IMG/VR virus record: IMGVR_UViG_2693429774_000011
Reading direction: 5' to 3' (one strand)
Origin: a virus
Taxonomy: Duplodnaviria > Heunggongvirae > Uroviricota > Caudoviricetes
DNA length: 40,169 nt
The notes under the pieces were generated by a model, which made no database searches, was not told the origin of the DNA, and saw nothing but the letters and a program-made list of their open reading frames with translations. The position numbers were made by a program, and so were the translations under genes. Shown here in pieces: positions 2,982 to 3,816 of the stretch (position 1 is its first letter; every line of letters begins with the position of its first letter).

Positions 2982-3010
2982 TTGTGAGCCCTTGCAATGT
3001 TCATTAATAT
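2982..3010 (+). promoter_or_regulatory. candidate sigma70 promoter for the GIY-YIG gene
   Basis: TTGTGA, 17-bp spacer, TAATAT; about 33 bp upstream of ATG 3043. Confidence 0.4.
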
Positions 3011-3042
3011 ACGTCTCACGAATAATTCATAGATATTGCAAA

Positions 3043-3816
3043 ATGGATATTACTGAGTTTCCTTCTGGAGTAATTGAACACCTTGGCTGGTATGTATACC
3101 GATTGATTGATCCGAGGGACGGAAGCACCTTCTATGTAGGGAAAGGCAAAGGTAACCGCGTATTTGCCCATATGCGCGGTGAAGTGGCAGCGACTGATGA
3201 TGACGAGTTACTGAGCAACAAGCTAAAGCAAATTAGAGAAATAAGGTTAGCAGGACTTGAGGTTATCCATGTCATCCATCGACACGGAATGACTGATGAA
3301 AAGACGGCGTACGAAGTCGAAGCAGCACTTATTGATGCCTACCCTGGGTTAACGAATATCATGAATGGTGCTGGCAGCAATGAATTCGGCGCCGCGCATG
3401 TCAAAGAGTTGATAGCAACATATCAACCCGAAACCATAACATTTCATCATAAAGCATTAATGATTTCCGTTAACAGAAGTGCAAAGGATTCAGAGCTTTA
3501 TGATGCGGTTCGATTTAGCTGGCGCATTAATGTCTCTCGCGCCAGCCAAGCAGAAGTCATTCTTGCTACTGTAAGGGGGATCGTTCGAGGGGTTTTCATT
3601 GCTGATAAATGGCTCAAATCAACACGTGAAAATTTCCCTACGATGAAATACTGGGACGAGGATCCGGACTTTGAGGCAACACAAAGTTCTCGCTATGGTT
3701 TTGAAGGTCGAGAAGCCCCACCTGAAATAGCAAATCTTTATCTTGGAAAAAAAATACCAGATGAATTAAGAAAAAAAGGAGCTATGTCCCCGGTCCGTTA
3801 CTCACCTAATTTTTGA
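3043..3816 (+). CDS. GIY-YIG nuclease-domain protein (candidate defence or selfish nuclease)
   Basis: first ATG of the ORF; N-terminal WYVYRL...[14 protein letters not shown]...YEVEAAL...NIMNG fits GIY / YIG / Arg / Glu / Asn spacing; unknown C-terminal domain; last 37 codons identical to the C-terminus of the tail-fibre ORF 7049-7798. Confidence 0.6.

Follow-up and report, generated by a model that had tools for sequence, protein, structure and literature searches.

The stretch of DNA analysed here (the window; 40,169 nucleotides) carries, close to one end of a prophage, a gene for a putative GIY-YIG nuclease whose last 37 codons occur a second time, fused to a tail-fibre gene. The locus raises a twofold question: what is the nuclease, and has either the nuclease gene or the fibre acquired a foreign C-terminus, as the original prediction proposed? 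We consider it highly probable that 3043..3816 is an intact CMoRE (PD-T4-3) gene with its native 3' end, and that the second tail, joined to the fibre, arose as an artefact of assembly. The 257-aa open reading frame runs on the plus strand from an ATG at 3043 to a stop at 3816; position 2982, where the originally described span begins, belongs to a proposed -35 hexamer and is not the start of the coding sequence. The features on which the argument depends are collected in Table 1.

Table 1. Coordinates of the nuclease gene, the adjoining prophage end and the invertible tail-fibre region in the window.
Feature	Position	Strand	Basis or remark
Host DNA at prophage junction	2593..2866	-	Part of zinT-serU intergenic region and 3' 66 nt of serU
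3' 66 nt of tRNA-Ser serU	2801-2866	-	Similarity to serU locus
Promoter-like hexamers TTGTGA-17-TAATAT	2982..3010	+	8/12 sigma-70 consensus positions
CMoRE / PD-T4-3 gene, intact, 257 aa	3043..3816	+	PADLOC, PHROG, Pfam, PDB, nucleotide identity
GIY-YIG nuclease domain	about residues 1-120 of CMoRE		
5hmC/5ghmC-sensing domain	about residues 125-257 of CMoRE		
CMoRE last 37 codons, E221-F257, and stop	3702..3816	+	Native; left edge of twice-present block
pinE serine DNA invertase, 184 aa, genuine copy	3877..4431	-	Resolvase and HTH_7 domains; annotated pinE in comparison loci L001 and L002 (S1-IND-01-A)
Crossover site ix1	4494..4517	.	Invertase side to fibre variable part Sv1; overlap of repeat arms
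Invertible segment	4518..6347	.	Sv1 and assembly protein (plus); tail-fibre assembly protein and Sv2 (minus)
Crossover site ix2	6348..6371	.	Invertase side to Sv2; other inversion isomer
Second inverted copy of CMoRE tail, spacer and pinE	6372..7162	.	Identical to 3703-4493
pinE copy within duplicate	6434-6988	+	Absent from S1-IND-01-A
249-aa fusion ORF: fibre constant region, Sv1 fragment, CMoRE tail	7049..7798	-	Reads through N join
Junction base	7163	.	'A' in window, 'N' in CYDV01000012.1 ('cggaggNgaaggtcg')
Second copy of Sv1's first 327 nt after crossover, on fibre constant region	7164..7490	-	Identical to 4518-4844; other inversion isomer
Crossover site ix3	7491..7514	.	Fibre constant region to Sv1

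The identity of the gene is carried by matches that span it from end to end. The PADLOC model for PD-T4-3 (PDLC04031) aligns residues 1-256 of the protein with profile positions 1-255 of 256 (E 2.4e-140), and PHROG 5356 is matched over its whole profile (positions 1-255 of 255; E 2e-143). An N-terminal set of GIY-YIG motifs had been predicted, with the lack of any GIY-YIG profile match named as grounds for abandoning the idea; Pfam places the LEM-3_GIY-YIG model PF22945 on residues 28-110 at 54.2 bits, well above its cut-off of 27 (E 2.1e-14). The generic GIY-YIG model PF01541 stays below threshold (13.9 bits against 22.6), and a search of NCBIfam with the CMoRE protein gave no match. Among structures, the chain in PDB 9U75 and 9U8D—the CMoRE of E. 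coli O157:H7—is identical to the window protein at 253 of 257 positions (E 3.7e-172 for 9U75), and 9U7U and 9U7Z are close relatives (E 1.1e-150). At the nucleotide level, an 835-nt query covering 2982-3816, and with it the entire coding sequence, is 100% identical in many E. coli O157:H7 genomes, where the protein is annotated as 'LEM-3-like GIY-YIG domain-containing protein' (WP_000355484.1); the gene was found in 822 of 5426 complete E. coli genomes. The nuclease is thus an already known system, both characterised and crystallised.

PD-T4-3 was discovered in ECOR68 by functional selection against T4 (Vassallo et al. 2022, PMC9519451) and was given the new name CMoRE by Liu et al. 2026 (PMC12923530), who describe a single-gene type IV restriction endonuclease. 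Under its native promoter the O157:H7 gene gave about 5 logs of protection against T2, T4, and T6, through direct and not abortive defence; the enzyme degrades DNA containing 5hmC or glucosyl-5hmC, spares DNA containing C or 5mC, cleaves at CN11/N9G to leave 2-nt 3' overhangs, and works as a tetramer (PMC12923530). In the structure, the GIYxY-YIG motif (Y17, Y19, Y31) belongs to an N-terminal GIY-YIG domain, and an acidic loop autoinhibits the active site (PMC12923530). Modification-dependent nuclease activity extends to a homologue with 48% identity, which cuts Mu DNA as well (PMC12366544), and PD-T4-3 works in a clinical isolate that is its native host (10.1101/2024.12.20.629700). The proposal that a moron at the prophage terminus encodes an anti-phage nuclease therefore agrees with published protection and nuclease activity (PMC12923530, PMC12366544, 10.1101/2024.12.20.629700); because the gene is CMoRE, the plaque assays and catalytic mutants suggested as follow-up are already in the literature. 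The roughly 140 C-terminal residues described as lacking a recognisable motif correspond to the published 5hmC/5ghmC-sensing domain. The enzymology given here is that of the cited studies; the identity of the gene, the conservation of its tail, its genomic context, and the N at the junction come from the present analysis.

O157:H7 strains carry two alleles, and the window holds WP_000355484.1, the crystallised protein being the other, WP_000355475.1. The two are equal in length and share the two-domain architecture, and only four substitutions separate them (T51A, E55D, Q169K, and N197H; 98.4% identity), two of which fall within or beside the autoinhibitory loop. The residues Y17, Y19, Y31, R80, V92, L96, and Y127 in the numbering of PMC12923530 are all identical and at equal positions in the window protein, so that the motif tyrosines, Y127 of the 5hmC site, and the dimer-interface residues V92 and L96 are common to both. 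The GIYxY-YIG motif as defined in PMC12923530 reads W16-Y17-V18-Y19 ... F30-Y31-V32-G33, with the three tyrosines identical to those of 9U75 and invariant in an alignment of homologues (A1, described below). The acidic loop keeps four consecutive acidic residues (D52-D53-D54-E55, against DDDD in 9U75), and residues 111-257 align with 9U75 without gaps and with two substitutions, Y127 being invariant in the same alignment. The gene also stands by itself, as expected of a single-component system: it has no co-oriented neighbour, an att remnant lies upstream and the convergent pinE downstream, and the O157:H7 CMoRE is likewise a single gene adjoining pinE in a prophage.

Activity of the window allele may be expected from its likeness to the O157:H7 protein, at 98.4% identity, and the published mechanism would then carry over. 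The C-terminal domain would bind a flipped-out 5-hydroxymethyl- or glucosyl-hydroxymethyl-cytosine, as published for the 98.4%-identical protein, and a CMoRE dimer would recognise a pair of such modified cytosines at a distance of 21 bp (CN11/N9G). Cleavage between the two cytosines, with 2-nt 3' overhangs, would be the work of the N-terminal GIYxY-YIG domain (Y17, Y19, and Y31 with the catalytic Arg and Glu); the acidic loop D52-D53-D54-E55 would cover the active site, such that unmodified host DNA is spared. The active form would again be a tetramer, and defence would be direct, not abortive.

Before the doubled tail can be weighed, the region beyond pinE has to be described. It has the makings of a serine-invertase tail-fibre switch of the Pin type: an invertase with Resolvase and HTH_7 domains, inverted crossover sites, and two fibre ends with their assembly proteins. 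The domains of the invertible segment (Pfam Gly_rich_2, Collar, and Caudo_TAP) and its colinearity with S1-IND-01-A are in keeping with this. As in the Gin, Cin, Pin, and Hin switches (Mu G, P1 C, and e14 P segments), the invertase stands beside a segment with inverted crossover sites of about 26 bp, and the segment encodes two alternative fibre C-termini, each with an assembly protein of its own. The crossover half-sites fit what we take to be the consensus, TTNTCNNAAACC / GGTTTNNGANAA. The window differs from these switches in appearing with three sites and two invertase genes, a peculiarity that we ascribe to the assembly rather than the phage. Of the four junctions that inversion can produce, three are found: invertase to Sv1, invertase to Sv2, and constant region to Sv1. 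Since they occur in one assembly, we infer that the sequenced culture was a mixture of both isomers of the fibre segment, with Pin active; this is what one would expect of such a mixture. As to the alternative fibre ends themselves, the Sv1 end (4459-5133) is glycine-rich (Gly_rich_2) with a run of eight glycines, and the Sv2 end has a Collar domain.

Two inverted repeats overlie this segment: one of 816 nt, with arms at 3702-4517 and 6348-7163, and one of 351 nt, with arms at 4494-4844 and 7164-7514. Mismatches between the arms are confined to the 24-bp crossover sites. The observation that prompted the idea of a chimera is accurate in both its parts, as the last 37 codons of CMoRE do begin a repeat at 3702 and the same 37 residues do recur at the end of the 249-aa fibre frame. 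Against the closest complete genome, S1-IND-01-A, the window is colinear at 99.9% identity or above from 2577 to 15000, except for an extra 1143 bp between two crossover sites; these 1143 bp repeat 3702-4844 in inverted and circularly permuted form, and the novel junction lies at 7163/7164. The source of the window is contig CYDV01000012.1 of the draft assembly GCA_001284905.2. Over 12,750 aligned bases, window and contig differ at a single position, 7163, where the contig has the only N in the 12.75 kb of it that was read. A single N is typical of scaffolders and gap-fillers that abut contig ends without overlap.

Which of the two proteins is abnormal can be judged from the tail itself. The PD-T4-3 profile, PHROG 5356, and the crystallised protein all extend over the 37 residues. 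In alignment A1 (13 homologues, 56-85% identity, including Salmonella, Enterobacter, Erwinia, Klebsiella, Acinetobacter, Oligoflexia, and Pirellulales), nine positions of the tail are invariant: G222, A225, Y233, K236, P239, G246, A247, P250, and Y253. Additionally, Salmonella, other Enterobacteriaceae, Klebsiella, and Acinetobacter keep this C-terminus at loci with no invertase or fibre gene nearby. Because the profile and structure matches run full length and the tail is conserved where invertase and fibre are missing, the tail is, by these sequence comparisons, native to the nuclease, and CMoRE is not chimeric. A nuclease gene that is a chimera or a decaying pseudogene, with a C-terminus captured from the fibre or invertase region, would have as its sole support the repetition of the last 37 codons within the window; the full-length matches, a tail conserved across phyla, and an intact reading frame identical to that of hundreds of genomes leave it with practically no probability, and the profile, PDB, and alignment matches amount to a refutation. 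The comparison with homologues that had been proposed as a check on the tail has thus gone against the foreign C-terminus: the homologues carry it as their own. We give next to no credence, either, to the gene being a GIY-YIG homing endonuclease, a selfish mobile gene instead of a defence enzyme. That reading draws on a weak match to part of the PHROG 314 'homing endonuclease' profile (E 0.0021) and on jumbo-phage homologues (38-45% identity) annotated as homing or GIY-YIG endonucleases, but the full-length match is to the PD-T4-3 family, experimentally a modification-dependent restriction enzyme, and the gene sits in a prophage cargo slot with no intron, intein, or interrupted host gene. In both profile and context it departs from homing endonucleases of the I-TevI type.

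With the tail assigned to the nuclease, the question passes to the extra 1143 bp and the fibre. They could be real: a tandem duplication of 3702-4844 by illegitimate recombination, followed by two Pin inversions among three crossover sites, would give a map exactly like the one found, the fusion is in frame (a chance of one in three), and the copies differ nowhere but in the crossover sites, which would suit a recent event. We nevertheless regard this history as improbable. The junction region has no match among the 5426 complete E. coli genomes, and a 40-mer across the junction has none in GTDB representative genomes, IMG/VR, or JGI metagenomes; the fusion protein (CTX01888.1 / WP_072166228.1, 'glycine-rich domain-containing protein') is known from the one contig CYDV01000012.1. 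A 221-aa cluster mate of the fusion protein was considered as a second sighting and set aside, being a frameshifted normal fibre. The break between 4844 and 3702 shows no microhomology and no likeness to a crossover or pseudo-crossover site, so that a real duplication would need an unexplained illegitimate join, and one that coincides with the only ambiguous base of the region, whereas a mixed population of isomers explains every junction without a new event. For much the same reasons, an actual multi-site inversion system, with the 1143-bp inverted duplicate supplying a second Pin gene and a third crossover site, strikes us as decidedly improbable; were it true, one isomer would encode a shortened fibre with 37 restriction-enzyme residues at its end. 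The fibre-CMoRE fusion is very probably an assembly artefact, a scaffold join mixing two inversion isomers. The assembly would have drawn reads from both isomers, along a route that we infer for the assembler: a first contig may have passed through the invertible segment and on into the invertase flank in reverse complement, a second may have started within a copy of Sv1 linked to the fibre constant region, and the two would have been abutted with a single N. The DNA at 6372..7162 is most likely an assembly duplicate and not real, and the proposal that the fibre acquired a foreign C-terminus is most likely wrong. The practical lesson is that draft assemblies of invertible phage segments give rise to spurious chimeric proteins, the deposited CTX01888.1 / WP_072166228.1 being an example, and that the replacement of the N by a real base in the window hid the sole clue to the join. 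For the biology the locus adds little, CMoRE being a known system already.

The promoter proposed for the gene fares less well than its coding sequence. The hexamers at 2982-3010 had been called near-consensus for sigma70; they match at 8 of 12 positions, and a promoter scan with a threshold of at least 9 of 12 called neither this site nor any other on the plus strand upstream of CMoRE. Sites with 8 of 12 matches occur at 1.7 per kb per strand across the window; when the 450-nt upstream region was shuffled, at least one turned up in 80% of cases. The site is poorly conserved upstream of orthologues in other genera, and the upstream alignment with those genera is very divergent. A promoter at this location is plausible, but the match is no better than chance would give. 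Some native promoter has to be present upstream, as the O157:H7 gene protected by about 5 logs under its native promoter (PMC12923530).

The gene was also predicted to lie beside att, and host DNA indeed ends close to it. More than 5000 E. coli genomes contain a serU locus with 98% identity to the stretch 2593-2866; the similarity ends at 2866, and on the left the stretch is truncated by IS3. ARAGORN called no intact tRNA, and an Rfam scan of 2600-3050 gave only sub-threshold matches, including a weak partial tRNA-clan match from the tRNA fragment. One of these, 'Plastid-psbl-rps4 3'UTR' (2804-2855, antisense of the serU fragment; 31.8 bits against a gathering threshold of 68), was dismissed as a false positive due to the tRNA-like sequence. 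The att was thus identified by its similarity to the serU locus, placing the junction of prophage and host about 176 bp upstream of the CMoRE ATG. In a comparison genome the tRNA-Ser is situated between zinT and mtfA. Further to the left, positions 1-1343 of the window hold ycdU and ymdE, followed by IS3 (about 1328-2592), which abuts the truncated zinT-serU spacer; in K-12, ycdU/ymdE and zinT-serU are, as we understand it, distant loci. An IS3-mediated rearrangement has evidently moved the prophage end. In O157:H7 and S1-IND-01-A, the serU remnant is preceded instead by an AraC-family regulator and IS fragments.

From att inwards, CMoRE is followed by pinE, then by the invertible fibre segment and the constant region of the fibre, and then by baseplate and tail genes of the Mu type; the remaining window encodes a head module of the HK97 type and an early region that is lambdoid. 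CMoRE is cargo at the serU-proximal end of this prophage, in which lambdoid early genes are combined with a contractile tail of the Mu type. The gene is contiguous with pinE in 565 complete E. coli genomes. The stop codons of the two convergent genes are 60 nt apart (spacer 3817-3876), and a terminator scan predicted no intrinsic terminator between them—antisense transcription by read-through between CMoRE and pinE is possible.

The place that CMoRE occupies had been likened to that of mcrA in e14, and the e14 order (ymfQ-stfP-tfaP-tfaE-stfE-pinE-mcrA-attR) does put mcrA between pinE and attR. EcoKMcrA, like CMoRE, is encoded between a Pin invertase and att, downstream of a Mu-type baseplate and an invertible fibre module; the proteins are unrelated, McrA being an HNH enzyme and not a GIY-YIG one. 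The two prophages differ in that mcrA is co-directional with pinE in e14, whereas CMoRE is convergent with it in the window, and in their integration sites, icd for e14 and serU for the window prophage. Strain 85.0412 has a Pin-bearing prophage in which unrelated small genes fill the slot, namely a DUF2335 gene and two hypothetical ones. P2-like prophages carry their invertase internally. With such varied contents, the interval from the Pin invertase to the prophage end looks like a small hotspot for defence or other cargo. The invertase-proximal end of e14-type prophages holds different type IV restriction enzymes according to lineage (McrA or CMoRE), an alternation that supports scanning this end as a cargo slot for defence genes.

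Outside E. coli, CMoRE was not prophage-terminal in the four loci sampled, and its neighbours differ in each other genus sampled. The Salmonella homologue adjoins a RelE/HTH pair, and that of other Enterobacteriaceae lies within an integrative island with Antirestriction, DUF932, and AlpA genes; the Klebsiella homologue is near a HicB-like antitoxin, and in Acinetobacter the homologue follows gatCAB, near a PIN/DUF6364 pair. Full-length CMoRE homologues (38-45% identity) also occur in jumbo phages of Serratia (Moabite, 2050HW, and Kodama), Pectobacterium, Pantoea, and Pseudomonas (OBP), and virulent phages with a modification-dependent nuclease could use it in competition with other phages.
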